Shown here: positions 2,966-41,985 of the stretch, in pieces
How the letters are laid out: the number at the start of each line of letters is the position of its first letter
Numbering within the stretch: position 1 is the first letter of the stretch
Source of the DNA: a virus
Lineage: Duplodnaviria > Heunggongvirae > Uroviricota > Caudoviricetes
Strand: one strand, 5' to 3'
Virus record (IMG/VR): IMGVR_UViG_2541047698_000015
Length of the DNA: 42,876 bases
Program-made: the position numbers and the translations under genes
Notes under the pieces: generated by a model
What the model was told of the DNA's origin: nothing
The model's database searches: none
What the model saw: only the letters and a program-made list of their open reading frames with translations

Positions 2966-3606
2966 TTTTCGGAATACCTCTCCCGTTTACTCAGTTGTTC
3001 AGGAATATGGTGCAGCAGCTCGCCGTCACCACAGTAAACGGCGGCATGATTCGGCACCGATGAACCAAAGCAGCACAGCAGCACATCGCCTGCCTGTGCA
3101 GAGGACGGAGACACCCGGCAAAAGCCGTTTTCCGCCAGGTTGTCCAGGTACAGGTTCTGGCCGTTGCGCCACCAGTCATCCTCGCGATGAAAATCCGGCA
3201 TTTCAGTCCCCGCCAGATGATAAGCATCCCGGAACAGCGTGTAACAGTCCGTCACCCCGTGCTCAAAGCGCCGTCCCGTCAGATGTGGCACACAGCGGAA
3301 TTTGTGAATGTCACCCCGGCAGACCAGCCACCAGGGCAGTGCGCTTTTTATCTGCAGCCGCCGGTCAGCCTCGCTCAGCCAGGGCAGCCCACCGGGATGA
3401 CTGTGGACCAGTGCCACAATCTCCCCCTGCATCTCTGCCCGCAGCCAGTCTTCCGGTGCGATACGAAAATACGCCTCCGGCTCCGCGGAAATATTCACAC
3501 AAGGGATATACCGCTCCCCCTCCGGCGTGCTTATCACGAAGCCGCACGACTCCGCAGGCGCACACCGCCGGGCATGCGCCAGAATCGCTGATTCAGTCTG
3601 TGTCAT
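2863..3606 (-). CDS. K: tail tip assembly protein K (JAB/MPN plus NlpC/P60-like motifs)
   Basis: Start moved to internal MTQTESAILAHARRC (ATG ~3606) to avoid overlap with L; contains HSHPGG and a Cys/His pair typical of K. Confidence 0.85.
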   Translation of the reverse strand: MTQTESAILAHARRCAPAESCGFVISTPEGERYIPCVNISAEPEAYFRIAPEDWLRAEMQGEIVALVHSHPGGLPWLSEADRRLQIKSALPWWLVCRGDIHKFRCVPHLTGRRFEHGVTDCYTLFRDAYHLAGTEMPDFHREDDWWRNGQNLYLDNLAENGFCRVSPSSAQAGDVLLCCFGSSVPNHAAVYCGDGELLHHIPEQLSKRERYSEKWQRRTHSVWRHRHWHASAFTGIYNDLAAASACM

Positions 3607-3616
3607 AAACCGGGAT

Positions 3617-4315
3617 TTACTGCGAAAGTTTATTAATGGAAAGGAAACCGCCAAAATTGCCGACATTCCTGCGCAGTTCACACCCGCGCATGCACTTGCT
3701 GCATCTGTCCTTACGGATATCCGTGGTGGGTTTATCGAACTCATCCGCCACAGCCCCGCCCGTGTAACCACACTCATCAGAGCGGTAGGTCCACATACAG
3801 GTGTTCGCCAGCATGATACGACCGGGAAACAGCGCCCCGTCCGTCTCGGTCGGTGTGGCCAGCACAAACGAGGCCGTCATGGCTGTCAGCTGCGACATCT
3901 GCTCCACCACCCAGCGGTCACTCAGCTCCTGCTCCGGGTCCGCCTCCGGATTGCCCGCAACGAAATTCACCGCATCCAGAAAACGGGCATACACCCGGCG
4001 GCGGACCACCGTGGCCCCCACCAGACTCTGCAGGTCTTCCGCCATCCCGGTGACCAGACCAAACAGATTGGACACCGTCAGCGATGGTCTGGCACTGCTG
4101 CCCTTCCCGTTCATCTCAAAGCCACTCCCCTCAATCGGGTACGCCTGATATTCACGCCCCTGCCAGGTCACCGGCTCCCCTTTTTCATTCAGCTCATTGC
4201 AGAAAAAATACCGCTCACCGCCCTGCACCGTCAGGTCGATTTCCCAGAGTACCACCCGCGGTGACTGCTCTGACTTAACCGACTCGTTCAGACTTTCTTC
4301 GCGAATATCCTGCAT
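3617..4315 (-). CDS. L: tail tip protein L
   Basis: 232 aa, MQDIREESLNE...GNFGGFLSINKLSQ, near-identical in pattern to lambda gpL. Confidence 0.95.
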   Translation of the reverse strand: MQDIREESLNESVKSEQSPRVVLWEIDLTVQGGERYFFCNELNEKGEPVTWQGREYQAYPIEGSGFEMNGKGSSARPSLTVSNLFGLVTGMAEDLQSLVGATVVRRRVYARFLDAVNFVAGNPEADPEQELSDRWVVEQMSQLTAMTASFVLATPTETDGALFPGRIMLANTCMWTYRSDECGYTGGAVADEFDKPTTDIRKDRCSKCMRGCELRRNVGNFGGFLSINKLSQ

Positions 4316-4644
4316 CAGTTCACCACCTGCTTAAACTCCGCGCTGAACTCAACGCGCAACATCCCGACCCGCGCAGACCACCCGGCACAGGTCACCTTTA
4401 TCTGCCGGTATGCATAGGGTGGCTTCCACAAAAATGCCTTCCAGCCACCGTGCTCTGCCAGGAACGCTTCCAGATGCCGGGCCTCCTCCCGGGTCACGGA
4501 AAGCGTCACCCTGTATGTTTTCAGGTCAGCATTCAGCCCTGCCGCCATACGCTGTGAGTACCCGTAACCAAAACGCACTTCACGCACCGATGGCTGCGAG
4601 TTCACCTCCATATCCGGCTTCACTTTCCAGCGAAAGGTTTTCAT
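4315..4644 (-). CDS. M: tail tip protein M
   Basis: 109 aa, MKTFRWKVKPDMEVNSQPSVREVRFGYGYSQR..., matches lambda gpM. Confidence 0.95.
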   Translation of the reverse strand: MKTFRWKVKPDMEVNSQPSVREVRFGYGYSQRMAAGLNADLKTYRVTLSVTREEARHLEAFLAEHGGWKAFLWKPPYAYRQIKVTCAGWSARVGMLRVEFSAEFKQVVN

Positions 4645-7214
4645 CCACCGCTCCCTGATAACATACCGCCATCACGCAACTGCAGCCGGAGTTCATCCTG
4701 TGCCCCCTTGCGGGCCATCTCATACACCGCTTTCATCAGCTGCGGCCCTGCCCGCCCGTTGGGGCCGTCGTTCTGAATCACCACGTGATTGTTCTGATTA
4801 AAATTAATGCCTTCCGCCCGCCGCATCTGCGCCGGACTTCCGGCACCGCCGACATAACCACCTTCCGCATAGCCCCGCATCAGGCGGTACAGATTGCCGA
4901 CACCAATCCGGCTGGTCGCCTCCTTCGTGAAGACAAACTCCCCGCGATGAACAATCCCCGCAGGTTCATATTTGCCGCCGGTTCCCGTAAATCCTCCGGT
5001 CGCAAAATGGAAGTTCGCCGCCGCAGCCTGAATGGCTGTACCGCCTGACGCGGATGCGCCACCACCAACAGCCCCGCCAATGGCGCTGCCGATACTTCCG
5101 ACAATCCCCACCATTGCCTGCTTCAGAAAAATCTCTGTCAGCATGGAGAGCACGGAACGGGTGAAACCACGCCAGTTCTGCTCACTGCCGGTCAGCATCG
5201 CCGCCATATTCTGTGCAATACCGTCAAAGGTCTGCGTGGCCGCGTTTTTAACCTGCGAAAAACTGTCCGTCGCACTTTCCGCCCACTCGCCCCAGCCGGA
5301 CTTCATCCCGGCCATCCAGCTTCCACGAAGCTGCTCCTCCGCAGACCAGGTGTTCTTCAGTGCCGATGTGGCCTTCGCCAGCGCAGCCGGATTATCACCG
5401 TACACCTCACGAAGGCGCTGCTCTTCCGACTCCCGCTGCGCCTGACGGTCAGTGAGGCCGCGGGCTTTTGCGCTGATTGCCGCCTGCTTCGCGCTCTGCT
5501 GCTGTTCAAACCGCGCCGCCTGCTGTGCCAGCTCATTCAGCCGCTTCTGGTGTTCTATCTTGTCGCCCAGCTCAGCCAGCTGGCGTTTGTACTCCAGCGT
5601 TTCTTTCTCATGGGCCAGCAGGGATTTTTCCTGCTCAGATAACTGCCGTTTCGTGGCGGCCTCTTTCAGGACCACATACTGATTTTCCGCTTCCCATAAA
5701 TCCCGGCGCTGCTGGCTGATTTTCTCATTCACACCGCTGTGTTTTTCCAGCGTCCTGAGCTCGGTTTCAAGCGCCAGCATGGCTGCATGCGCCCGGTCTT
5801 CCTGGCGCTCACCGGCAGACACCTTCACACCTGACGGCTTTTTCAGCGTCGATTCATAATCCTTTTTTGCCGACGCCATCAGCGTGTTGTAATCCGCCTG
5901 CAGGATTTTTCCGTCTTTCAGGGCCTTATTCAGCTCTTTCTGACGGGCGGTATATTTATCCAGCGGCGTCTGCAGGCGCTCATACGCCTTCTGCGCCTCT
6001 CCGGTATACTTCAGCTGTGACGCCTCACGCTCAGCCCGGTCCCTTGCCGCCAGTTCACCGGCTTTTTCCATATCCGACTGCAGCGTGGCCGCTGCCAGAC
6101 CCAGACGGGCATTTTCCCGGTCATCCCATGCCCCCTGAAGGTTCGCACGAAAAGAGGAGGTCTTTCCCCGGCGCTGGCTCCGGCTCTGGTACCACTGCCA
6201 TTTTTTATCCGCCTCATCAAATGCCTTCTGCGCACTGGCGAGCATATCCGCTGAGGATTCCGGACGACCGATATCCAGAATGGCATCCCACATCGATTTG
6301 AATGCCTTCCCTGTTTTATCCGCCCAGGTCTCCAGTGTTCCCATGTTTTCTTTCAGGCGACGGGTCTGCTCATCAAAGCCTTTCGTGGCGATATCGTTCG
6401 CCGCCTGCAATGCCCCGGCCTCGTCTCCGGAACGCTGCAGCTGTGCAACATACGCAATCTGCTCTGCCGTCACGTTACGGAACTGGCGCGCCATCGCCAT
6501 CAGTCCCGACGTCGGGTCAGTGGTCAGCTTCCCGAAGGCTTCAGCGACTTTATCCACCTCCACACCGGATGCAGACGCAAAACGCGCGACACTCTGGTTG
6601 ATGGCATCAAACTGTTCACCACCACGCACACCGGCATTCACCATGGCTGCCAGTGACTCACTCGCCTGGTTAAACGTCAGCCCTGCTGCCTGCCCGGCTC
6701 TTGAGAGAGTCAGCATACGATCGGCAGTCAGTCCGGACTGATTACCGGAAAGAACCAGGGTTTTATTAAACGCTGAAAGCGTGGAATCTCCCTGGTACCA
6801 GGCGTACACCAGCGCACCTGTCGCCACCGCCAGCGAGGTGACCCCGACCATCGGCAGGGTGATCGCACCGGCAAGCCCCCTGAACATGGGGATCATCCCG
6901 CCGAAGGAGTCCTTCACCTGACCGCCCTGTTGCAGCAGGATCAGCCAGGGATTCTGACCACCGGCAAGCTGCGTGGCGATATCCGTAAACTGTGCGGGCA
7001 GGGTTCGCATGGCCGCTTTATACTGCCCGACGGAAATCCCTGCTTTTTGTGCAGCCAGCGCCTGGCGGCTCAGGCCCTGTTCAACAGCACTGGCGGTTTT
7101 TCTGGCGTCGGTATCCAGACCTGAAAAATGACGCCTTACCCGGCTCATCTGCTCATCGAAACGGACAGCATCCAGACTAAGGTCAATAACAAGATCACCA
7201 ACCGGCTGGGACAT
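4641..7214 (-). CDS. H: tail tape measure protein H
   Basis: 857 aa, coiled-coil rich with Gly-rich C-terminal region, between the G-T region and M as in lambda. Confidence 0.95.
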   Translation of the reverse strand: MSQPVGDLVIDLSLDAVRFDEQMSRVRRHFSGLDTDARKTASAVEQGLSRQALAAQKAGISVGQYKAAMRTLPAQFTDIATQLAGGQNPWLILLQQGGQVKDSFGGMIPMFRGLAGAITLPMVGVTSLAVATGALVYAWYQGDSTLSAFNKTLVLSGNQSGLTADRMLTLSRAGQAAGLTFNQASESLAAMVNAGVRGGEQFDAINQSVARFASASGVEVDKVAEAFGKLTTDPTSGLMAMARQFRNVTAEQIAYVAQLQRSGDEAGALQAANDIATKGFDEQTRRLKENMGTLETWADKTGKAFKSMWDAILDIGRPESSADMLASAQKAFDEADKKWQWYQSRSQRRGKTSSFRANLQGAWDDRENARLGLAAATLQSDMEKAGELAARDRAEREASQLKYTGEAQKAYERLQTPLDKYTARQKELNKALKDGKILQADYNTLMASAKKDYESTLKKPSGVKVSAGERQEDRAHAAMLALETELRTLEKHSGVNEKISQQRRDLWEAENQYVVLKEAATKRQLSEQEKSLLAHEKETLEYKRQLAELGDKIEHQKRLNELAQQAARFEQQQSAKQAAISAKARGLTDRQAQRESEEQRLREVYGDNPAALAKATSALKNTWSAEEQLRGSWMAGMKSGWGEWAESATDSFSQVKNAATQTFDGIAQNMAAMLTGSEQNWRGFTRSVLSMLTEIFLKQAMVGIVGSIGSAIGGAVGGGASASGGTAIQAAAANFHFATGGFTGTGGKYEPAGIVHRGEFVFTKEATSRIGVGNLYRLMRGYAEGGYVGGAGSPAQMRRAEGINFNQNNHVVIQNDGPNGRAGPQLMKAVYEMARKGAQDELRLQLRDGGMLSGSGG

Positions 7215-20306: not shown

Positions 20307-20840
20307 TTATCTGTCGATACCCCAGCACGCCAGCGCGCTCTCCTGGTCACGACGGGATACCTGACCGTAACAGTTGTTTGAACGAATACGGCAGTCTCTG
20401 CCACCGTCCTTAATCCACCAGCGAATCGCTTCGCAGGCACCTTTTCGATCACCAGCATTAATTCGTCTGTAAAACGTCGACGGGAAACACTTACCGGGAC
20501 CAATGTTGTACGGACAGAATGACGCGATCCCCGCTTTCTGGGGTTCGGTCAGCGGCACTCTGATGTTTTTCTCCACCCACGCCAGCGCTTTATCACGCTC
20601 AATGGCGTTAACCTGGTCGCATTTTTCCTTCGACAACTTCATGCCCGGAACGACAGGTTTGCCATCCACCATGATGGCACCACGGCAGATGGTCCAGATA
20701 CCTGCACCATCACGGTATGCTGTGGTGTGGTTGCCTTCCTTTTCATCCAGAAACTGGTCGAGAATGTCAGGCGCAGGCGCACCAGCGGCAATCAGCGCCA
20801 GAACGGCAGCCGACAGGCCGTATTTGATTTTGGTGTTCAT
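20307..20840 (-). CDS. R: SAR-type endolysin (lysozyme R)
   Basis: 177 aa with hydrophobic N-terminal signal-anchor-release segment (MNTKIKYGLSAAVLALIAAGAPAP), resembling P21/RrrD-type endolysins. Confidence 0.9.
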   Translation of the reverse strand: MNTKIKYGLSAAVLALIAAGAPAPDILDQFLDEKEGNHTTAYRDGAGIWTICRGAIMVDGKPVVPGMKLSKEKCDQVNAIERDKALAWVEKNIRVPLTEPQKAGIASFCPYNIGPGKCFPSTFYRRINAGDRKGACEAIRWWIKDGGRDCRIRSNNCYGQVSRRDQESALACWGIDR

Positions 20841-20876: not shown

Positions 20877-21770
20877 CTAAATACGCACTTTAAGATAAGT
20901 CAGCCCCGGATGAAGCCAGTAAGCCGGCACTTTTTTAAAGGGTGGAGTATTAAAATCACGAAGAAGAGCCTCCCGCACAATTGCATCCTTATCAGCACCA
21001 CTGGCCAGCGCTTCAATCTCAGCGGCTACCTGAAGATATCCCATGCAACGGCCAACGCGCTTCATCAGCCCCTGCTTTTTATTGTTCTTCAGGTAATCAA
21101 TGGCAAATTCAATGAGCTCCTCACTGTGCTGGTGCGATGGAGGTGTTACTTTCCCATTTTCTGAGATGGTTATTTTCCCAGCATCACCGGATACAACAAA
21201 GGATGGCCGGTTACACTCCCATTCCAGCTCACTGAAATTATCATTATGAATACTGAAACACTCTGCGAGATTTCTGCTCATCACTTTCCGACAATAATCG
21301 TCAAACGCAGCAAACTGCTTTTCATCGCCAGAAGGCACCAATATCGACCATTTCTTATTCAGCTCAACGACGTAGCTCTCCAGTTTTTCAATACGTGATT
21401 CAACATCATCTTTTTCTGACCGCAGTGTTGACGGCGGCATCTTCAGAGAACAAGTAATTCTTCCCGGTAGCTTTCCTTTGTAGGTTATCAACACATCCTG
21501 CGCCTCTAAAATTACGGGGCGCTTTTCCGGCAACGGTTCGTTCCATTCACATAACCCGGCAGCAACATCCATGAAAAACTGCTTCGCCTGCTTTTTCGCC
21601 TCAGCTTCGTAAAACTCCAGCGTGGCACCTTCAGTACGGTCAAGACTAATCGCCACATCTGGCAACAACAGCGACGCTTGCCCGTCACCTTCCGGCTTCA
21701 CAGTAACAGTAACCTTATCCCCGTAATTATTTATCCCCTTAACAACCAGTTCATATTTTTTATTCATCAC
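20877..21770 (-). CDS. hypothetical 297-aa protein between holin and endolysin (no family recognised)
   Basis: Continuous ORF starting 2 nt after the holin stop; no TM or signal peptide; somewhat AT-richer than neighbours; in Qin this slot holds the ~100-aa ydfR. Confidence 0.7.
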   Translation of the reverse strand: MMNKKYELVVKGINNYGDKVTVTVKPEGDGQASLLLPDVAISLDRTEGATLEFYEAEAKKQAKQFFMDVAAGLCEWNEPLPEKRPVILEAQDVLITYKGKLPGRITCSLKMPPSTLRSEKDDVESRIEKLESYVVELNKKWSILVPSGDEKQFAAFDDYCRKVMSRNLAECFSIHNDNFSELEWECNRPSFVVSGDAGKITISENGKVTPPSHQHSEELIEFAIDYLKNNKKQGLMKRVGRCMGYLQVAAEIEALASGADKDAIVREALLRDFNTPPFKKVPAYWLHPGLTYLKVRI

Positions 21771-21771
21771 T

Positions 21772-21987
21772 TTACTCTCCCCGCGCCGCCTTACGCCGGT
21801 CCTCTTTGATTTTGAAATACAGGTTAGTCAGGTACGTCAGCAGCCCAAACAGCAGACTCCCCAGCACGCCTATTGCCGCCCACTGAGACGGGGAAACCCT
21901 GTCCAGCAACTGCAGGAACCAGTAGCCCGTTCCCACCGCTGACGTGGTGTATGACACACCTGTTGTGATTTTTTCCATCTGGTACAT
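21772..21987 (-). CDS. class II holin (EssQ/S21-like)
   Basis: Start moved to [30 protein letters not shown]... (71 aa, two TM), GGGAGA SD upstream; matches the Qin EssQ holin as I recall it. Confidence 0.85.
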
Positions 21988-22063
21988 ACCCCGTCTCCCG
22001 TTATCCGGAAGCTCACAACAATATAAAGACCACCGGCACACACCGATGGTCCCTTGCGCAGGC

Positions 22064-22665: not shown

Positions 22666-24627
22666 TCATGCCGCGATGTCCGCGTTGTTCACTTCCACCT
22701 TCACACTGTCAATCAGCAGCGTATATGTCGCCGCCTTTGATATGCCTGTCAGTTGCAGTTTGTCCGCCGCCCCTGATGCCGGAGATTTCACCAGTGTGAA
22801 CGGCGTCCCCCGTTTCTCATCCAGTACCGGCGTCACCTGAATGCTGTTGTTTCCGGCAAACTCAAAAGCCAGTGTGTGCCATCCGTTATCAAAGACCCCG
22901 AACGTTTCCAGCTTCGCATTCGGCTTCTTGTGGTGCATCGCGTTCAGGTTCGTCGCATCCGTCTGCAGAAAGAAGGACATCAGCATGTCGTTGCCTTCCT
23001 CTGCCAGCGTCACTCCCTCCGGCAGGGACGACAACTGCCAGTAAATGCCCAGGGCAAACTGATTCGGCACCAGTGAACCCGGCAACTTAAACCGTACGCT
23101 CACACGTCCCCCCTTCTTCAGTAACTCCACTCCCTGTCCGGCTGCATCATGCTCCAGAAACCAGATGTGGTTTTCCGGTTTATTCAGTTGCAGGGCCTTA
23201 CCTCCCGTAGCCCCCGCATCACTGACCACCGCTTCAGCAATGTTTTTGTTAACATTGTCTCCGCTCGCCGGTTTGTGATAATAGCGCCAGCCCTGTGATG
23301 CCAGGTCTTCGCCGGACGCCAGCAGACTCATCAGGGTTCGGTTACTGACCGGGGCTTCCGGCTCTCTCTCCGTACCTTCACCGGAAGGTCCGGTGGGCTT
23401 CACCGTATCAGGCTGTTTTCCGGTAATGAATTCAGCGTTTCTCCCGGCATGCACAAGAATCGCCGTTGCCAGACGGTCGGAAATAATCCCACGACGTGCC
23501 CATGATCCAAAATGCGTTTTACGGTCGGCCGTCGTCCAGGTTTTGGCGTCCGTTCGACCACCGGCTCCGTAATACCCAATATCCGCAACATCCGGATCTT
23601 CTGACGGCTCGTTGGTACCCACATTTCGCCCGTTTTCATCCGTCATAAACGGCACAAAGAAGATTTTTTTTGCGGATTTCGTCTTGTATGCACCATACAC
23701 CGCATCGTATTGCGAAGAATAAGTCTGCTTCCAGTAGTAGGTCGTGTCGCCACAAATCCAGGGAACCGATGACGGAGAGCCCCCGAGACACTGACCTCCG
23801 AATTCCGACAGGTCAGAACGATATTTTTCCACCATGGAATCAAACAGCCCCGGCTGAGTGGCGTATGCACCCTGTTTCAAATCAAACTCGCCCTGCATCC
23901 AGACCACTGCAAGCAGAATATTTTTAGGGTTGGCCTTCAGTGCGGCCTGAGTACGGGTAAGCAGGTCCTTGTACAGTGGCTTATCAACACCCCAGCGTGC
24001 CGAGGTCTCGCTTGCGCCGGTGGATTCGCTGAAGGTACCTTCATCGCCCGCCAAAAATGCAGAACCACCACGGCAGCACGGAACCAGAAGAATACCGGCA
24101 TTCGCCGGAATAAACGGCAACAATTTCTTCGCGATATGTAATCCCTGCCCCACGCATCCATACTGAGCTGCGCTGGCTTTCGGGTGTGAAAACTTACTCA
24201 AATCCTGAACATCATGCAGGCAGTGGTCCGCAGGAATAATGTCATTGTAGTTACAGGACGCACCACCCGGCGTGACAGTGCTGCGACGCGCCAGCTGTTT
24301 AATACGCGGGTCCGGACGGTCATATGTCTCCGGCAGCGGAAGCCCTTCACCATACGCCATACCGTTTGACTGCCCGGCCAGGGCAACAACAAAGTAATAC
24401 TCCGGGTTGCTGGTGGTGCTGATAACTGCGCCTTCTCCATCCGACGGCTTCACCACCACAGGTGTGGTGACATCACCTTCCGCCGCAATGGCCTGCATCA
24501 GGGTATAAGGCGTGATGGCCACCGGACTGCCAAATGGCTGCCACCCCTCCTTCAGTTTTTGTGTCAGTCGTTTCGCAAGGTCTGACGGCGATGCCGCCCT
24601 GACAACATCATAGTGTTTAAATGCCAT
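22666..24627 (-). CDS. nanS-p: prophage sialate O-acetylesterase (nanS-p / YjhS-like SGNH hydrolase)
   Basis: ~653 aa from MAFKHYDVVRAAS...; GQSN motif (FVVALAGQSNGMAYGEG); position between the Q-tRNA-cargo slot and holin, as for nanS-p in Stx2 phages. Confidence 0.8.
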   Translation of the reverse strand: MAFKHYDVVRAASPSDLAKRLTQKLKEGWQPFGSPVAITPYTLMQAIAAEGDVTTPVVVKPSDGEGAVISTTSNPEYYFVVALAGQSNGMAYGEGLPLPETYDRPDPRIKQLARRSTVTPGGASCNYNDIIPADHCLHDVQDLSKFSHPKASAAQYGCVGQGLHIAKKLLPFIPANAGILLVPCCRGGSAFLAGDEGTFSESTGASETSARWGVDKPLYKDLLTRTQAALKANPKNILLAVVWMQGEFDLKQGAYATQPGLFDSMVEKYRSDLSEFGGQCLGGSPSSVPWICGDTTYYWKQTYSSQYDAVYGAYKTKSAKKIFFVPFMTDENGRNVGTNEPSEDPDVADIGYYGAGGRTDAKTWTTADRKTHFGSWARRGIISDRLATAILVHAGRNAEFITGKQPDTVKPTGPSGEGTEREPEAPVSNRTLMSLLASGEDLASQGWRYYHKPASGDNVNKNIAEAVVSDAGATGGKALQLNKPENHIWFLEHDAAGQGVELLKKGGRVSVRFKLPGSLVPNQFALGIYWQLSSLPEGVTLAEEGNDMLMSFFLQTDATNLNAMHHKKPNAKLETFGVFDNGWHTLAFEFAGNNSIQVTPVLDEKRGTPFTLVKSPASGAADKLQLTGISKAATYTLLIDSVKVEVNNADIAA

Positions 24628-24887
24628 GGTTCTTTCCACCATCTGAAAAATAATTCTTTAAAATACCTGACATGTAATACAGAAAAAACACAAAACCATA
24701 CCTTAAATAAAAACCTCATCATCAAGCAGATATGCATGGATAAACTACAAGACGAGATATAAACCACCCTGCATTTAAATAAACAATAAACAACATCAGA
24801 AAAATAATTCTGCTCTATGGTTTACATTCAAAAATATCATTTATACTTTTCAGAACATCACCAGCAAGACATAAACAAGGAAACTAA

Positions 24888-25223
24888 ATGAAGTGGATTG
24901 TGATTGATACAGTTATCCAGCCATCATGCGGAATATCTTTTTCAGTCATATGGAGTAAAATAAAATTAATAATCTGGTATCAATCGGATGCTTTCTTACC
25001 TCCTGAAAGTATATTTACACTGACTCACACAGGTATCATGCTCAATAACAAAGTGCTACCTGTAACCATTTACAACGTAGCACCATTCAATAAAACATTC
25101 TGGAATTTAATCAAAAACAGCCAGGAATGTCCTACAAATACAGATAACGTATTGAATGAATGCTTTAATAACCGTTGCACTCTGCAAATATGTCCTTATG
25201 GACTAAAACAACAAAGTCCATAA
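24888..25223 (+). CDS. hypothetical protein, 111 aa, in a ~33% GC island
   Basis: Good SD (AAGGAAA, 5 nt spacing); markedly AT-rich versus flanks; convergent with the late operon; Trp/Cys-containing, no family recognised. Confidence 0.45.
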
Positions 25224-25670
25224 GGAGTTTACTCACATCTGACAAAATCAATATAAACAGCCCCTCCGGAGAGGGGCTGGAGAGTGGCGCTATGTGCCAT
25301 TGCATGGTGCCGGGTGCCTCCCGGTGAATTCAGTACCAGCACCTGAATCCGCGATTATCCCATATACCTACTCGCTGATTGCCCCTCCGCACAGGGGGAT
25401 TCACCATGCCAGTTTCTTTTAACAAACTCCCCGCAAACCAGACAACAGTCAACCGCCTGAATTGTGAAGTATTTAAAAATTTCTCCCGCTAACTGATACC
25501 CGGCTAACAGTCTGGCGTTTTCTTTTTCAGCAACGGGAAAGCAACAACCACCACACCCGCCACCAGCACACCGTCAGCCAGCACTGACATTATCCGGCTG
25601 CTGCAATGCCACTCACAAAAACAGTAAGCAATCACTTTTTACCGTAACAAGTGATAATCCAGATATGTAT

Positions 25671-26024
25671 CTACCCCAGATGAGTAATCCGAAGTTCATC
25701 CATACCACAGGTCCTGGCTATTCTGTTGTACTCCTGAACAAGAGCAAATAATTCTGAATTAGCAACCATGAACTCATCGCAAACCCTCTGAATAGCATCA
25801 CTATTCAGAATAATAACGTCTCTTCCCGAAAGACGATCAGGAGTACAGAACAAAACTGTCAAACGGCTGAAGGCCTTTGCTCGTGCTGCATTGACTATAT
25901 CAATACGCTGCCTAAGGATGAAACACCCCGACGCCTCATCAATATTCACTCTACCCACACCATATGAATGATAAATATTTAATGCTGAAAAAACCATTAG
26001 ACCGTATAACAAACACTCAATCAA
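25671..26024 (-). CDS. hypothetical protein, 117 aa, first gene after the phage tRNAs on the late transcript
   Basis: ORF ...VFSALNIYHSYGVGRVNIDEASGCFILRQRIDIV...; sits where stxA is in Stx phages; no family recognised; start ambiguous. Confidence 0.5.
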   Translation of the reverse strand: MIECLLYGLMVFSALNIYHSYGVGRVNIDEASGCFILRQRIDIVNAARAKAFSRLTVLFCTPDRLSGRDVIILNSDAIQRVCDEFMVANSELFALVQEYNRIARTCGMDELRITHLG

Positions 26025-26137
26025 TACTTAACAGAACTTTTATTTTTGACAAACATATAATATTTTCAACAATATCCTGAGCCAGGTATATTTCAGTATA
26101 AGGCTCTGCCGGAAGGAATCTGGAAGAATGAATATAG

Positions 26138-26211
26138 CGCGCTGTACTGGATTCGAACCAGTGACCGATTGCTTAGAAGGCAATTGCTCTGTCCGGCTGA
26201 GCTAACAACGC
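26138..26211 (-). tRNA. tRNA-Arg (anticodon UCU), argN/argO-like; CCA end not encoded
   Basis: Cloverleaf readable by hand: acceptor GCGUUGU/ACAGCGC, D-arm AGCTCAGCCGGACAGAGC, anticodon loop CUUCUAA, T-arm ACTGG-TTCGAAT-CCAGT. Confidence 0.8.
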
Positions 26212-26311: not shown

Positions 26312-26387
26312 TGGTGGCCCTTGCTGGATTTGAACCAGCGACCTGGCGATTATGAGTCGCTCGCTCTCACCACTGAGCTAAAGGGCC
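26312..26387 (-). tRNA. tRNA with CAU anticodon (Ile2-lysidine type, ileZ-like; Met not excluded)
   Basis: GGCCCTTTAGCTCAGTGGTGAGAGCGAGCGACTCATAATCGCCAGGTCGCTGGTTCAAATCCAGCAAGGGCCACCA on minus; anticodon loop CUCAUAA; CCA encoded. Confidence 0.8.
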
Positions 26388-26423: not shown

Positions 26424-26452
26424 AATAAAAAACCCGCTCGGCGGCGGGTTGT
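26424..26452 (-). terminator. tR'-like intrinsic terminator downstream of the late promoter
   Basis: Minus reads acaacccgccgccgagcgggttttttattg: GC stem plus U-run, ~45 nt after the promoter -10. Confidence 0.6.
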
Positions 26453-26497
26453 AGAAACTCTTCTAACGTCAGGCATAAAAGGCCCATCGTTATGACG

Positions 26498-26525
26498 AAT
26501 TTACCACAGATTCCGGAAAAATCAA
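26498..26525 (-). promoter_or_regulatory. late promoter pR'-like (-35 TTGATT, 16-nt spacer, -10 TAAATT); Q-utilisation region
   Basis: Hexamers read on minus between the Q stop and the tRNAs; arrangement matches lambdoid pR'-qut-tR'. Confidence 0.5.
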
Positions 26526-26530
26526 CCTTG

Positions 26531-27352
26531 TTACCTAGTTACCTTTTTTAACTGCCGCTCAGCCCATGCTTCTTCAATATCAAACCGGGTCACCAGCGCA
26601 TCATAGAATTTCTTAACTGTTTTTTCCCATGACGCGCGTGTTATCTGGTTTGTCACCTCGCATATAGCATTAAATGCCTCCGTTGATGGTAGTCTTTCAT
26701 AGCCACGACCACCACAACGCTGGCAGTCTCTGATAACAGGCATACCACGTTTTACCGACTCTTCACGGTGAATGGCGACACCACGCCCACGGCAATCCTT
26801 ACAGGCGGTGGAAACCTCACCCTTTCCGCCACACTCCGGACAGGCAACTTTTACCACCTCCCTGACTTTTTTCCATTCTTCCCAGTAAGACGGATACACA
26901 CCTTTCGTACACTTTGCCCATACCGGCGGCTTACCATCCGGATACTGGACCTTGTTTGTAAAAACTATGCTTTCAATAAATTTTTCCCCATAGCAACAAG
27001 GGCACTGCTTTTTACTCGCTGCGCTGCGGGCATAATCCTCAAAAGCGTACGAAGCCATAATGCGCATCACTACCGGTTTTATTTCTGCCGGAAGTTTTCT
27101 CAACGCCGCCACACGATCGCACCGACTGAGTGCATAATCTGCCAGTAATTCTGTTGCCCGCACCCTGTCATTCATACTGATGCCCATTTTCCCCAGGAAC
27201 GCAGAAAAACCCATCTCAGCCCGATTCTGTGTCATGCCCTGCGCGGCCATCACATCAGTGATACTCAGCGCATCTTTTGACGTTGAGGCCGATGCATCGG
27301 TCAGGCCAGGGGATTTTGGGGAGTAGTATTTCGGTAAATCTTCCAGTTTCAT
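26531..27352 (-). CDS. late antiterminator Q-like protein with three CxxC-G-G/R-G zinc motifs
   Basis: 273 aa with CPECGGKG, CKDCRGRG, CQRCGGRG; immediately upstream of pR'/tR'; assignment is mainly positional. Confidence 0.6.
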   Translation of the reverse strand: MKLEDLPKYYSPKSPGLTDASASTSKDALSITDVMAAQGMTQNRAEMGFSAFLGKMGISMNDRVRATELLADYALSRCDRVAALRKLPAEIKPVVMRIMASYAFEDYARSAASKKQCPCCYGEKFIESIVFTNKVQYPDGKPPVWAKCTKGVYPSYWEEWKKVREVVKVACPECGGKGEVSTACKDCRGRGVAIHREESVKRGMPVIRDCQRCGGRGYERLPSTEAFNAICEVTNQITRASWEKTVKKFYDALVTRFDIEEAWAERQLKKVTR

Positions 27353-29596: not shown

Positions 29597-29752
29597 TTAC
29601 TCCTCAGGTTCGTAAGCTGTGAAGACAGCGACCTCCGTCTGGCCGGTTCGGATTCGTACCTCGCAGAGGTCTTTCCTCGTTACCAGTGCCGTCACTATGA
29701 CGGTTAAACAGATGACGATCAGGGCGATTAACATCGCCTTTTGCTGCTTCAT
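29597..29752 (-). CDS. hok: Hok-family type I toxin (51 aa)
   Basis: Hand translation of minus strand gives MKQQKAMLIALIVICLTVIVTALVTRKDLCEVRIRTGQTEVAVFTAYEPEE, a canonical Hok; not in the ORF track because it is under 60 aa. Confidence 0.9.
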   Translation of the reverse strand: MKQQKAMLIALIVICLTVIVTALVTRKDLCEVRIRTGQTEVAVFTAYEPEE

Positions 29753-29990
29753 AGCCTGCTTCTCCTTGACCTTTCGGTCCGTAAGAGGCTAATCTCTATG
29801 TGTCGCATAGATATGGCCTCAGATTAATGTTAAGCGTCTTGCAGGACGCGTAATGTTAACTGGGGCTTTTCTCTATCTGCCTTTTGGTGTTCATGCCTGA
29901 GACAGATAGCCTCAAGCACCCGCAGTTATTCTACTTAACTAAGATTTCCCCGCAAACCGTTTTTGTCCGGCACAGTAAATATCCAACTAA
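29753..29990 (-). promoter_or_regulatory. hok leader region with short upstream leader ORF whose TGA overlaps the hok ATG (mok-like coupling); an antisense Sok-like RNA is expected here but not delimited
   Basis: Leader ORF MRHIEISLLRTERSRRSRL ends in cTATGAag; inverted repeats in the leader. Confidence 0.45.
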
Positions 29991-37379: not shown

Positions 37380-37438
37380 CCATGTGTAGTCTTTGGTGGC
37401 ATCAGTTCTACTCCGTGACTGCTCTGCCGCCCTTTTTA
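37380..37438 (+). ncRNA. dicF: DicF-like small RNA (ftsZ-targeting sRNA family) with terminator-like 3' end
   Basis: TCTTTGGTGGCATCAGTTCTACTCCGTGACTGCTCTGCCGCCCTTTTT matches the 3' two-thirds of E. coli DicF as I recall it; 5' seed region differs. Confidence 0.6.
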
Positions 37439-40614: not shown

Positions 40615-40818
40615 ATGAGTAGCTTATTTTTAACCGAAGATGAATTGCTAATATTAACGGGCTGCAAATATGCAAGCCACCAGCGAAAATGGTTAACGGA
40701 AAACGGGCTTCCGTTCTATACCAATCGTAGTGGCAAACCGATTGTCAGCCGGGATCTATTTACCTGCAATAAAACTTTACCACCACGCGAGGTAGAGCCG
40801 AATTTTGGTGCAATCTGA
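40615..40818 (+). CDS. xis: excisionase (Xis-like small DNA-binding protein)
   Basis: 67 aa directly upstream of int with TGATG stop/start overlap; sequence unlike lambda Xis, call is positional. Confidence 0.65.
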   Translation: MSSLFLTEDELLILTGCKYASHQRKWLTENGLPFYTNRSGKPIVSRDLFTCNKTLPPREVEPNFGAI

Positions 40819-41843
40819 TGGGAAGACGAAGGAAAAATCCTGAACACGAAAAACTACCTCCAAATGTATATCCAAATAAATATAGTTATGTATGGAAACC
40901 AACATCCAGAGAATCTGTCACACTAACCGCCATCAAGGATGGTTTAGCTGCTTTATGGAAAAGGTATGAGGAAACTGTAAATAATCGCGATCGCGCAATG
41001 ACATTCGGTCGCTTGTGGGAAAAATTCCTCGCCAGCGCCTATTACAGTGACCTCAGTCCAAGAACACAAAAAGATTATCTGCAACATCAAAAAAAGTTGC
41101 TTGCCGTATTCGGTAAGGTGCCGGCAGATTCCATAAAACCAGAACACATCCGTCGATACATGGACCAGAGAGGGGGGCAGAGTAAAACGCAAGCCAACCA
41201 TGAAAAAAGCAGTATGTCCCGCGTTTACAGTTGGGGATATGAGCGAGGGTACGTGAAGGCTAACCCATGTGCAGGTGTAAGTAAATTCAAGGCCAAAAAC
41301 CGCGAACGATATGTAACCGACAAAGAATACCAGGCAGTATTAAGCGTTGCACCTCTTCCTGTTTTTATCGCAATGGAAATTGCCTATCTGTGTGCAGCGA
41401 GGGTTTCCGATGTGTTATCGCTGAAATGGGAGCAGATTGGAAACGACGGGATCTTTATCCAGCAAGGGAAAACAGGGAAAAAACAGATAAAAGCATGGAG
41501 TCCACGATTACAGGCGGCGATCGAAAAAGCAAAACAGTTACCAACATCCGCCTATGTAATCAGCAATCAATACGGCAACCGATATATGTACAAAGGCTTT
41601 AACGAAATGTGGGTAGAAGCAAGAAATCGCGCAGGCAAAATTTCAGGTATTTTAACCGACTTCACCTTTCATGATCTGAAGGCGAAAGGAATTTCAGACT
41701 ATGAAGGAAGCAGCCGGGATAAGCAACTTTTCTCTGGTCACAAAACCGAGGGGCAAGTGCTAATCTATGACAGGAAGGTTAAAGTTTCACCGACACTTGA
41801 TGTCCCGTTACCTGAAAATATTCCAAGAAAATATTCCAAGTAA
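40818..41843 (+). CDS. int: tyrosine-type site-specific integrase
   Basis: 341 aa with C-terminal catalytic region (…HDLKAKGISDY…GHKTEGQVLIYDRK); adjacent to the tRNA-Ser 3' end. Confidence 0.9.
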   Translation: MGRRRKNPEHEKLPPNVYPNKYSYVWKPTSRESVTLTAIKDGLAALWKRYEETVNNRDRAMTFGRLWEKFLASAYYSDLSPRTQKDYLQHQKKLLAVFGKVPADSIKPEHIRRYMDQRGGQSKTQANHEKSSMSRVYSWGYERGYVKANPCAGVSKFKAKNRERYVTDKEYQAVLSVAPLPVFIAMEIAYLCAARVSDVLSLKWEQIGNDGIFIQQGKTGKKQIKAWSPRLQAAIEKAKQLPTSAYVISNQYGNRYMYKGFNEMWVEARNRAGKISGILTDFTFHDLKAKGISDYEGSSRDKQLFSGHKTEGQVLIYDRKVKVSPTLDVPLPENIPRKYSK

Positions 41844-41895: not shown

Positions 41896-41985
41896 TGGCG
41901 GAGAGAGGGGGATTTGAACCCCCGGTGGAGTTGCCCCCACTCCGGTTTTCGAGACCGGTCCGTTCAGCCGCTCCGGCATCTCTCC
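41896..41985 (-). tRNA. serU: tRNA-Ser (anticodon CGA), serU-like; integration target
   Basis: Minus strand reads GGAGAGATGCCGGAGCGGCTGAACGGACCGGTCTCGAAAACCGGAGTGGGGGCAACTCCACCGGGGGTTCAAATCCCCCTCTCTCCGCCA (90 nt, long variable arm, CCA encoded). Confidence 0.9.

Follow-up and report, generated by a model that had tools for sequence, protein, structure and literature searches.

In Stx phages, the late region runs from the antiterminator gene Q through pR'/tR'-like signals and the genes for tRNA-Ile2 and tRNA-Arg to a cargo position, which is followed by the small RNA STnc100, nanS-p, holin and lysozyme. In Stx2 phages, an STnc100 copy closely follows stx2, at a distance of 75 nt (PMC12370729). 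STnc100 copies are transcribed in EHEC EDL933, as a Northern blot confirmed for one of them (PMC5331693), and STnc100/PasD sRNAs have been associated with Q and esterase genes (bioRxiv 10.64898/2026.05.13.724894). In phage vB_EcoP_phi296 (PV189400), the cargo position contains only STnc100-like sequence, in the order tRNAs, STnc100, NanS.

Several RssB anti-adaptors that stabilize RpoS belong to one protein family, NF007393, including IraM of Escherichia coli K-12 (e14-adjacent; structure 8TWD), RssC of Salmonella and IraL. Over their full lengths, IraL and IraM are approximately 59% identical. IraM is induced by Mg2+ starvation via PhoPQ. IraL was described in uropathogenic E. coli CFT073 (Hryckowian et al., mBio 2014, PMC4045071), and that report attributes to it sigma-S stabilization, RssB binding and activity from its native promoter in K-12. 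It also describes RssB binding that differs from that of IraM and activity in unstressed log-phase cells, and its authors suggest that the iraL promoter is sigma-70 dependent.

We examined the position equivalent to that of stx in a lambdoid prophage, within a window of 42,876 nt (the whole stretch of DNA analyzed). The minus strand is the reading direction of the prophage, which tRNA-Ser(CGA) adjoins. Using profile, tRNA and terminator searches, we located every element of the Stx-phage-like order proposed in a preliminary description of this DNA, namely Q, a terminator, tRNA-Ile2/Arg, cargo, nanS-p and holin/lysozyme (Table 1), and its view that cargo sits after the Q/tRNA region and ahead of nanS-p agrees with the arrangement in phi296 and Stx2 phages. 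Unlike Stx phages, however, this slot lacks toxin genes. We conclude that it is very probably a mosaic accessory-gene ("moron") cassette of a lambdoid prophage late operon, consisting of iraL, STnc100, and an open reading frame that we call ORF92 together with a short DUF3927 peptide. The slot is ordinary overall and mostly already known, and only ORF92 among its contents remains truly uncharacterized.

Table 1. Features of the cargo slot and its flanks, listed in the reading direction of the prophage (positions in the window)
Feature	Coordinates	Strand	Evidence
Q-type late antiterminator, 273 aa, DnaJ-like zinc-finger region	26531..27352	-	PF03589 Antiterm, 182 bits; PF00684
pR'-like promoter, putative	26498..26525	-	TTGATT-16 nt-TAAATT, inferred from sequence only
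tR'-like intrinsic terminator, directly downstream of putative pR'	26431..26450	-	AACCCGCCGCCGAGCGGGTT then TTTTATTG
Phage tRNA, CAT anticodon (Ile2 type)	26312..26387	-	ARAGORN; Rfam tRNA, 72.5 bits
Phage tRNA-Arg (TCT)	26137..26211	-	ARAGORN; Rfam, 68 bits
ORF92, uncharacterized, 92 aa (MNIDE...HLG), probable GTG start	25671..25949	-	phrog_2873
DUF3927/TciB-like small membrane peptide, 43 aa, GTG start	25504..25635	-	PF13064; WP_000562553.1
STnc100-family prophage sRNA gene, including intrinsic terminator	25249..25438	-	Rfam RF02076
12-bp hairpin over iraL stop codon	25193..25226	+	RNAfold, -17.5 kcal/mol for 25186-25250
iraL, IraM/IraL-family RssB anti-adaptor, 111 aa, convergent to late transcript	24888..25223	+	NF007393; phrog_4407
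iraL promoter, putative: -35 TTTACA (24821-24826), -10 TATACT (24842-24847)	24821..24855	+	Read from sequence
nanS-p type sialate O-acetylesterase, 658 aa, downstream slot boundary	22666..24642	-	DUF1737 + SASA + DUF6645

The boundaries of the slot are annotated in an identical RefSeq locus, where Q is labeled "antitermination protein," the CAT-anticodon tRNA is called tRNA-Ile by PGAP and nanS-p is a "SASA family carbohydrate esterase"; downstream of nanS-p lie a holin gene, a DUF1327 ORF and a lysozyme gene. Of the pR'/tR' pair reported earlier, the terminator-like hairpin was recovered, whereas the putative pR' matched at 8 of 12 positions and fell under the threshold of our promoter scan. 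That scan returned 6 matches when 5.1 ± 2.3 were expected by chance, and we therefore left promoter-like sites near ORF92 out as evidence. We dismissed a Trp_leader match in Rfam (26424-26530; 25 bits; threshold, 41), taking it for a sequence that resembles a terminator.

The preliminary description placed two mutually unrelated, uncharacterized genes in the slot, neither matching a recognized family, and considered it a candidate location for a new function. We found both ORFs where they had been reported, one of 111 aa and one of 117 aa when read from TTG (25671-26024, minus strand), and they are indeed unrelated to each other. By sequence, however, the 111-aa gene is IraL, which has already been published. 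Its product passed the NCBIfam IraM model NF007393 (162.4 bits; cutoff, 121; residues 1 to 110 covered), matched the IraM crystal chain 8TWD_A with an E value of 2.2e-32 and was identical to CFT073 IraL at 110 of 111 residues, the sole substitution being A65V. K-12 IraM is identical at 52 of the N-terminal 78 residues (67%). Our gene also lies within the IraL subtype, as distinct from iraM, at the cutoff of at least 95% identity to CFT073 iraL that is used in PMC4045071. The proposal of a new function is thus wrong for the main cargo, a 99% identical version of an experimentally characterized protein. Other features ascribed to this gene held up: it lies in a low-GC island (coding sequence, 34%; upstream spacer, 29%; window, 52%), it has its own Shine-Dalgarno sequence (AAGGAA) and it is oriented against the minus-strand late transcript.

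The similarity to CFT073 extends well beyond the gene itself. In an alignment, the iraL coding and flanking DNA was approximately 99% identical, as was the whole 1.5-kb slot when compared to the potB-prophage locus of CFT073. Both loci show the order Q, tRNAs, DUF3927, iraL and DUF1737/nanS-p, with iraL inside the late region of a lambdoid prophage. They differ in that the CFT073 prophage sits at potB and ours beside tRNA-Ser(CGA), in that nanS-p is truncated in CFT073 and full length here, and in that only CFT073 has an IS200 element and a third tRNA upstream. In 2014, iraL was assigned to a "potB genomic island"; being an accessory gene of lambdoid phages that occupies the toxin position, it is phage-mobile.

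We mapped the start of iraL transcription onto position 24855, where the 5'-RACE sequence of the CFT073 iraL mRNA, as given in PMC4045071, matched at 30 of 32 bases, leaving a 5' untranslated region of 33 nt. Three bases differ from CFT073 iraL between -1 and +33, and the putative -35 and -10 hexamers are identical in the two alleles. These hexamers, which are separated by a 15-nt spacer that is short for a sigma-70 promoter, are our own reading of the sequence; PMC4045071 presents its own -10/-35 predictions in Fig. 1A. The hairpin over the iraL stop codon may possibly serve as the 3' end or terminator of the transcript. The same hairpin can form on the minus strand too, where it lies downstream of STnc100.

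The 99% identity to the CFT073 allele suggests that IraL of this prophage would likewise bind RssB and lengthen the half-life of RpoS. In a lysogen, iraL would be transcribed from its own promoter and its product would bind the adaptor RssB, so that RpoS would not be handed to ClpXP. Sigma-S could thereby be raised in growing cells, which would constitute the lysogenic-conversion function of the slot. Because iraL runs convergent to the late genes from a promoter of its own, at a site downstream of the sRNA, it is not a passenger of the late transcript as stx2 is. During lytic induction, RNA polymerase carrying the Q modification should pass the terminator of STnc100 and then continue antisense across iraL, and judging from gene order, such read-through would be expected to damp iraL expression.

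Between iraL and the sense-strand ORFs lies STnc100, which, like the DUF3927 peptide, had been overlooked. The match to RF02076 scored 132.4 bits (gathering score, 47) and spanned model positions 1 to 206, the full length. A hairpin with a 9-bp GC-rich stem (25258-25279), CAGCCCCTCTCCGGAGGGGCTG followed by TTTAT, forms its terminator, and the whole RNA folds at -74.6 kcal/mol (RNAfold). We predict a structured sRNA of approximately 190 nt with its own terminator. It resembles the STnc100/PasD sRNAs of EPEC and EHEC prophages, which are multicopy in pathogenic E. coli, in its full-length covariance match, its terminator and its placement between the Q/tRNA region and a sialate esterase gene; this class assignment is at the level of the RF02076 family. 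Five related loci (L002, L003, L004, L008 and L009) have a copy at the corresponding position. In lambdoid and Stx phages, STnc100 is the constant occupant of this site, marking the junction around which neighboring cargo modules are exchanged.

The presence of this sRNA also bears on several plus-strand reading frames. A possible 28-codon ORF (25406-25492) does exist mechanically but is probably no gene, as it runs antisense to the 5' end of STnc100 and to a conserved region upstream of it. We rejected the ORF in both its 28-codon and its 37-codon form (25379-25492), and likewise a pseudogene called by PGAP at 25294-25419, because the conservation in each case is explained by the sRNA on the other strand. 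The pseudogene call, antisense inside STnc100, is an annotation problem.

The second ORF of the preliminary description is the one whose uncharacterized status we could uphold: ORF92 matched phrog_2873 with 234 bits, a family labeled "unknown function." Its length of 117 aa is probably overextended. The mechanical ORF does reach a TTG at 26024, but the conserved start is the GTG at 25949, which yields 92 aa; AGGAG precedes the homologous GTG in one relative (L017), and in another (L008) in-frame stops lie upstream of it. Relatives of 91 to 95 aa with 32 to 63% identity occur in E. coli, Shigella and Citrobacter, and the family is tiny, comprising approximately 30 enterobacterial clusters. An alignment of ten members showed R22, V31, P36, N63, Y73 and N74 to be invariant. 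The exact 92-aa sequence is found on 210 contigs as a "hypothetical protein."

Searches of Pfam, NCBIfam, PADLOC and PDB sequences with ORF92 and its family gave nothing consistent. An AF2 model predicted a helical hairpin with a pLDDT of 90, and Foldseek searches with it returned prefoldin beta as the best match in the PDB (E value, 0.03) and a best E value of 0.16 in BFVD. Since all of the fold matches were generic helical hairpins, we rejected the prefoldin-like and DksA/TraM-like resemblances as uninformative. A conserved P-D at the hairpin tip led us to consider ORF92 as a binder of the RNA polymerase secondary channel (Gre/DksA/TraR type), and we set this candidate aside as well: ORF92 has no zinc-finger cysteines, and in the model the tip is formed by a beta-hairpin, not by a tight turn, such that this role would be speculation only. 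We consider ORF92 a real, selected and soluble helical-hairpin protein, most likely working by binding another protein.

The 43-aa peptide follows ORF92 after a gap of only 35 bp. It scored 95.6 bits against PF13064 (cutoff, 25), matched phrog_1470 ("TciB-like") with an E value of 7.8e-13 and, in this form, is a widespread RefSeq protein present on approximately 1,000 contigs. Members of the ORF92 family are usually located ahead of TerB-like/DUF3927 genes: in related loci (L011 to L013, L017 and L018), ORF92 sits upstream of a TerB-like gene, DUF3927 and holin, with the TerB-like gene, of 141 to 165 aa, between ORF92 and DUF3927. The present slot has no TerB-like ORF in that interval, and its DUF3927 gene lacks the overlap with the end of an upstream TerB-like gene that characterizes TciA pairing. 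Although the peptide follows ORF92 as in relatives, it also differs from the 50-aa TciB relatives in that the first hydrophobic segment is not conserved and a Cys/Trp-rich stretch appears instead. We therefore view ORF92 and the short peptide as a probable reduced form of a recurrent module of ORF92, TerB-like (TciA) and DUF3927 (TciB), which in relatives stands directly ahead of the holin genes. The function implied by "Tci" is an annotation label, and our literature search on TciA and TciB found no experimental paper, yielding only unrelated work on Trypanosoma. As sense-strand genes downstream of the tRNAs, ORF92 and DUF3927 would, on gene order, be expressed from the Q-antiterminated late transcript.

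One explanation for ORF92 is that it is a chance ORF in an AT-rich spacer, conserved through recent spread or a role at the nucleic acid level. PGAP omits it in RefSeq, its Shine-Dalgarno sequence is weak in the present allele (GTGGG) and it occurs in only 1 of 50,697 phage records. Moreover, when blocks of the slot were shuffled, ORFs of at least 92, 111 and 117 codons arose in 25%, 9% and 6% of trials. Since length alone is within chance, the case for coding rests on homology and the substitution pattern, and both argue against a chance ORF. Compared to a relative at 65% nucleotide identity, ORF92 showed differences of 33, 32 and 53 by codon position, an excess at third positions, as well as an in-frame 6-nt indel and zero stops. 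Its dN/dS was 0.35 overall and 0.285 in the core, versus 0.8 to 1.1 in three other frames and the mirror antisense frame, the latter with seven stops. Homologues of the same length and 32 to 44% identity exist in Citrobacter prophages and on plasmids, intact variants predominate, with clusters of hundreds of members versus 1 to 5 for broken ones, AGGAG precedes the homologous start in L017 and the confident AF2 model was obtained from only 10 sequences. We thus consider a chance ORF quite improbable; ORF92, a phrog_2873 member under protein-level constraint, is most likely a gene evolving as a protein, and its omission by PGAP is an annotation problem.

Alternatively, ORF92 could be a genuine gene that no longer matters here. 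With the TerB-like partner absent, ORF92 and DUF3927 may represent a functionless remnant in decay of the ORF92-tciA-tciB module that hitchhikes with iraL and STnc100, and the shortened peptide and the genomes that carry iraL and STnc100 without either ORF are consistent with this. We nevertheless find it somewhat unlikely, as hundreds of genomes have the two ORFs in intact form, the 43-aa peptide is itself widespread and scores far above the Pfam cutoff and the functional phage mEp460_ev081 retains both; the near-identity of the copies fits selection or recent spread alike. At the other extreme, ORF92 could be the founder of an unrecognized family, acting as a partner or regulator of the TciA/TciB membrane module located ahead of the lysis genes in many enterobacterial lambdoid phages, with Q read-through silencing iraL. 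This combined proposal strikes us as improbable; if true, the ORF92 family would be one that automated annotation largely misses, and the silencing would have the prophage raise host sigma-S only while lysogenic. Finally, the slot could carry a pair of novel cargo genes whose function is new, such as a toxin, an anti-phage defense or another conversion factor. The position is a known cargo position, and ORF92 is without a Pfam, NCBIfam or PDB match, yet this reading is already refuted for the 111-aa gene, and no PADLOC model matched ORF92, IraL, DUF3927 or a TerB-like relative with an E value better than 0.05. The slot is also far from rare, and includes among its carriers the very strain in which iraL was characterized. 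We regard two novel cargo genes as highly improbable, and continue to favor the mosaic accessory cassette.

The distribution of the slot is consistent with such a mosaic. It was present in full, in identical or near-identical form, in 863 of 5,426 complete E. coli genomes (16%), CFT073 among them. What occupies the position equivalent to that of stx in this very common type of E. coli prophage is thereby settled, namely published IraL and STnc100, which leaves current understanding unchanged. In other E. coli genomes, the sub-modules occur apart from one another. Phages share different parts of the slot as well: in mEp460_ev081, positions 1 to 1260 of the slot are shared at 99% before the sequences diverge, and vB_EcoS-640R1 shares slot positions 1094 to 2001.

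The cargo slot between the Q/tRNA region and nanS-p amounts in essence to the published iraL locus together with catalogued families, and it is thus already known. The preliminary description had placed two unrelated uncharacterised genes here; as an observation this was confirmed in part, and its interpretation was supported in part. Both ORFs, of 117 and 111 aa, lie where it had put them, and the 111-aa gene does sit in a low-GC island (29-34% GC versus 52% for the window) with its own ribosome-binding site, AAGGAA. In block shuffles of the slot, 25%, 9% and 6% of trials produced an ORF of at least 92, 111 and 117 codons, respectively; ORF length by itself is not beyond chance here, so homology and substitution patterns have to carry the case for coding.

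The 111-aa protein scores above the NCBIfam cutoff for NF007393 (IraM; 162.4 versus 121 bits), matches the crystallised IraM chain 8TWD_A (E 2e-32) and is named "anti-adapter protein IraM" by RefSeq in an identical locus. IraL was described in UPEC CFT073, where it raised the log-phase level and stability of RpoS and bound RssB, and iraL was active in K-12 from its native promoter after transfer (PMC4045071). The 5'-RACE sequence of iraL mRNA from that study is found at window 24855, with 30/32 bases matching, and the likely promoter hexamers, separated by a short spacer of 15 nt, are both identical in the CFT073 alignment. The potB prophage of CFT073 has the same order as the window (Q, tRNAs, DUF3927, a PGAP pseudogene fragment, an IraM-family gene, DUF1737), its DUF3927 protein has the identical WP accession, and the entire 1.5-kb slot aligned at ~99%. 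Together with the NF007393 match, the 110/111 identity between the two proteins marks the 111-aa gene as IraL, so the best prospect for a new function put forward earlier turns out to be an already characterised gene.

What remains novel is one small uncharacterised protein, ORF92, which tends to escape automated annotation. It is unannotated by PGAP in both the identical RefSeq locus and the CFT073 locus, and 210 contigs carry its exact 92-aa sequence under the name "hypothetical protein". It matches phrog_2873 (unknown function, 234 bits), and searches of Pfam, NCBIfam, PADLOC and PDB sequences returned nothing for the family. In two database searches, its relatives formed only ~30 clusters, all from E. 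coli, Shigella and Citrobacter, and most were 91-95 aa long. We compared it with the related locus L010 (DNA 65% identical) and found no stops, a single 6-nt indel and 33/32/53 differences at codon positions 1/2/3. The dN/dS was 0.35 overall, 0.285 over codons 26-117 and 0.75 over the first 25 codons, while other frames gave 0.8-1.1 with 10-20 stops, except the mirror antisense frame, with 7 stops. By these patterns the protein is real, although shorter than the 117 aa first described. The starts of distant relatives coincide with GTG 25949, AGGAG precedes the homologous GTG in the E. coli locus L017, and stops close the upstream extension in locus L008, which together make a 92-aa gene starting at this GTG most likely. 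In one clade (L004-L007), an IS3-family element inserted immediately upstream of the homologue has replaced the N-terminal extension of the ORF, leaving the 92-aa core intact.

An AlphaFold2 model of ORF92 from a 10-sequence alignment (pLDDT 90) predicts a helix (2-34), a short beta-hairpin (38-45) with the invariant P36-D37 region, and a second helix (49-80). In Citrobacter (L011-L013) and E. coli (L017, L018), its homologue is followed, in order, by a TerB-like gene (phrog_632, "tellurite resistance"), a 50-aa DUF3927 peptide and holins; in L008-L010 and L004 it comes after an AraC-like regulator and before one or two STnc100 copies and nanS-p. A 34%-identical, 91-aa relative on Rep3 plasmids (L014-L016) has a K88-like fimbrial operon, including a PapB regulator, on one side and a cation-efflux gene on the other, which places it outside any phage context. 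Our best guess, held with low confidence, is that ORF92 is a small protein-binding factor tied to a TerB-like/TciB membrane module.

The preliminary inventory omitted a 43-aa DUF3927 ORF (95.6 bits versus 25), which also matches phrog_1470, "TciB-like". The TerB-like gene is missing from the window's slot, with only 35 bp between ORF92 and DUF3927, and the DUF3927 peptide falls 7 residues short of the length of its relatives, with a first hydrophobic segment that is not conserved. Both a reduced pair that still functions and a remnant are possible readings of the two genes, and the near-identity of many copies fits either.

Also omitted was a full-length copy of the prophage sRNA STnc100 (132.4 bits versus a gathering score of 47, Rfam), with a GC-rich terminator. 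STnc100 is multi-copy, with eleven transcribed copies in EDL933, one confirmed by Northern blot (PMC5331693); Stx2 phages have one 75 nt downstream of stx2 (PMC12370729), and a 2026 preprint ties STnc100 to the PasD sRNAs and to neighbouring Q and esterase genes (bioRxiv 10.64898/2026.05.13.724894). The possible 28-codon ORF of the preliminary description overlaps this sRNA and the conserved stretch upstream in antisense, and we take it as an artefact of RNA conservation. A PGAP pseudogene in RefSeq genomes ("hypothetical protein, missing C-terminus"), antisense inside the STnc100 gene, is probably an annotation artefact of the same RNA-level conservation. Something similar happens in phage phi296, where PHANOTATE places three small ORFs antisense to the sRNA.

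The functional phage mEp460_ev081 is 99% identical to the slot over positions 1-1260, from the end of Q to STnc100, beyond which the two diverge, and vB_EcoS-640R1 has positions 1094-2001 in common (STnc100, iraL, start of nanS-p); at this place in vB_EcoP_phi296 there are only tRNAs, an STnc100-like sequence and NanS. At least 80% of the slot is present in 863 of 5,426 complete E. coli genomes. Some of the other genomes have just ORF92, DUF3927 and the 5' part of the sRNA, some just the sRNA and iraL, and some no more than the sRNA, with as many as 12 matches per genome, which are mostly to the sRNA segment in EHEC strains. From this sharing, STnc100 is the constant element, with variable cargo on both sides, and likely a recombination junction. 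Several related prophages and phages have two STnc100 copies in one late region, separated by a few hundred bases up to 3 kb, so tandem duplication or repeated insertion of modules appears common at this sRNA.

The 99% identity to the CFT073 allele, for whose promoter sigma-70 dependence was suggested (PMC4045071), implies that iraL would be expressed in lysogenic cells from a promoter of its own and that IraL would bind RssB and stabilise RpoS, as demonstrated elsewhere. In the window, the prophage reads along the minus strand. Gene order suggests that ORF92 and DUF3927 would be made on the Q-antiterminated late transcript from the putative pR', which fell below the pass mark of our promoter scan, and that upon induction Q-modified polymerase would pass the STnc100 terminator and run antisense across iraL.

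Features of the slot, its surroundings and related loci (window positions unless another locus is named)
Feature	Position	Strand	Remarks
Q-type antiterminator	26531-27352	-	PF03589, 182 bits
Putative pR'	26525-26498	-	
Terminator-like hairpin	26450-26431	-	
tRNA(CAT)	26312-26387	-	tRNA-Ile in PGAP, identical RefSeq locus
tRNA-Arg(TCT)	26137-26211	-	
ORF92 (most likely extent)	25671-25949	-	92 aa
DUF3927 ORF	25504-25635	-	43 aa
28-codon ORF	25406-25492	+	probable artefact
PGAP pseudogene	25294-25419	+	probable artefact
STnc100	25249-25438	-	RF02076
STnc100 terminator	25279-25258		
iraL	24888-25223	+	111 aa
Putative iraL -10	24842-24847		TATACT
Putative iraL -35	24821-24826		TTTACA
nanS-p esterase	22666-24642	-	DUF1737 + SASA + DUF6645
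DUF1378, DUF826, P21-type holin, DUF1327 ORF, lysozyme			beyond nanS-p, downstream side
297-aa ORF	20877-21770	-	between holin (21772-22041) and lysozyme (20307-20840)
hok/sok module	29597-29921	-	type I toxin-antitoxin
sok RNA	29750-29921	-	RF01794, 106.7 bits
HokD-like ORF	29597-29752	-	51 aa
DicF sRNA gene	37381-37432	+	RF00039, 58.3 bits
Integrase-sized ORF	40818-41843		
tRNA-Ser (CGA anticodon)	41896-41985	-	near right end of window
L002 STnc100 copies	3165-3358 and 3634-3822		
L004 STnc100 copies	2344-2556 and 5650-5839		
L008 STnc100 copies	5352-5547 and 5612-5718		
L004 IS3-family element	3762-4990		
L014-L016 ORF92 relative	5001-5276		Rep3 plasmids

Residues 2-101 of the 297-aa ORF form an N-terminal DUF1327/YdfR domain, followed by a C-terminal extension of ~200 aa; phrog_1085 (unknown function) matches the ORF over its full length (630 bits), and its PGAP label in the identical RefSeq locus is that of a truncated YdfR pseudogene. 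Elsewhere, the prophage carries a hok/sok module and, in its early region, a DicF sRNA gene. The integrase-sized ORF adjoins the tRNA-Ser (CGA) gene, which is likely the attachment site, consistent with the earlier "serU-integrated" remark.
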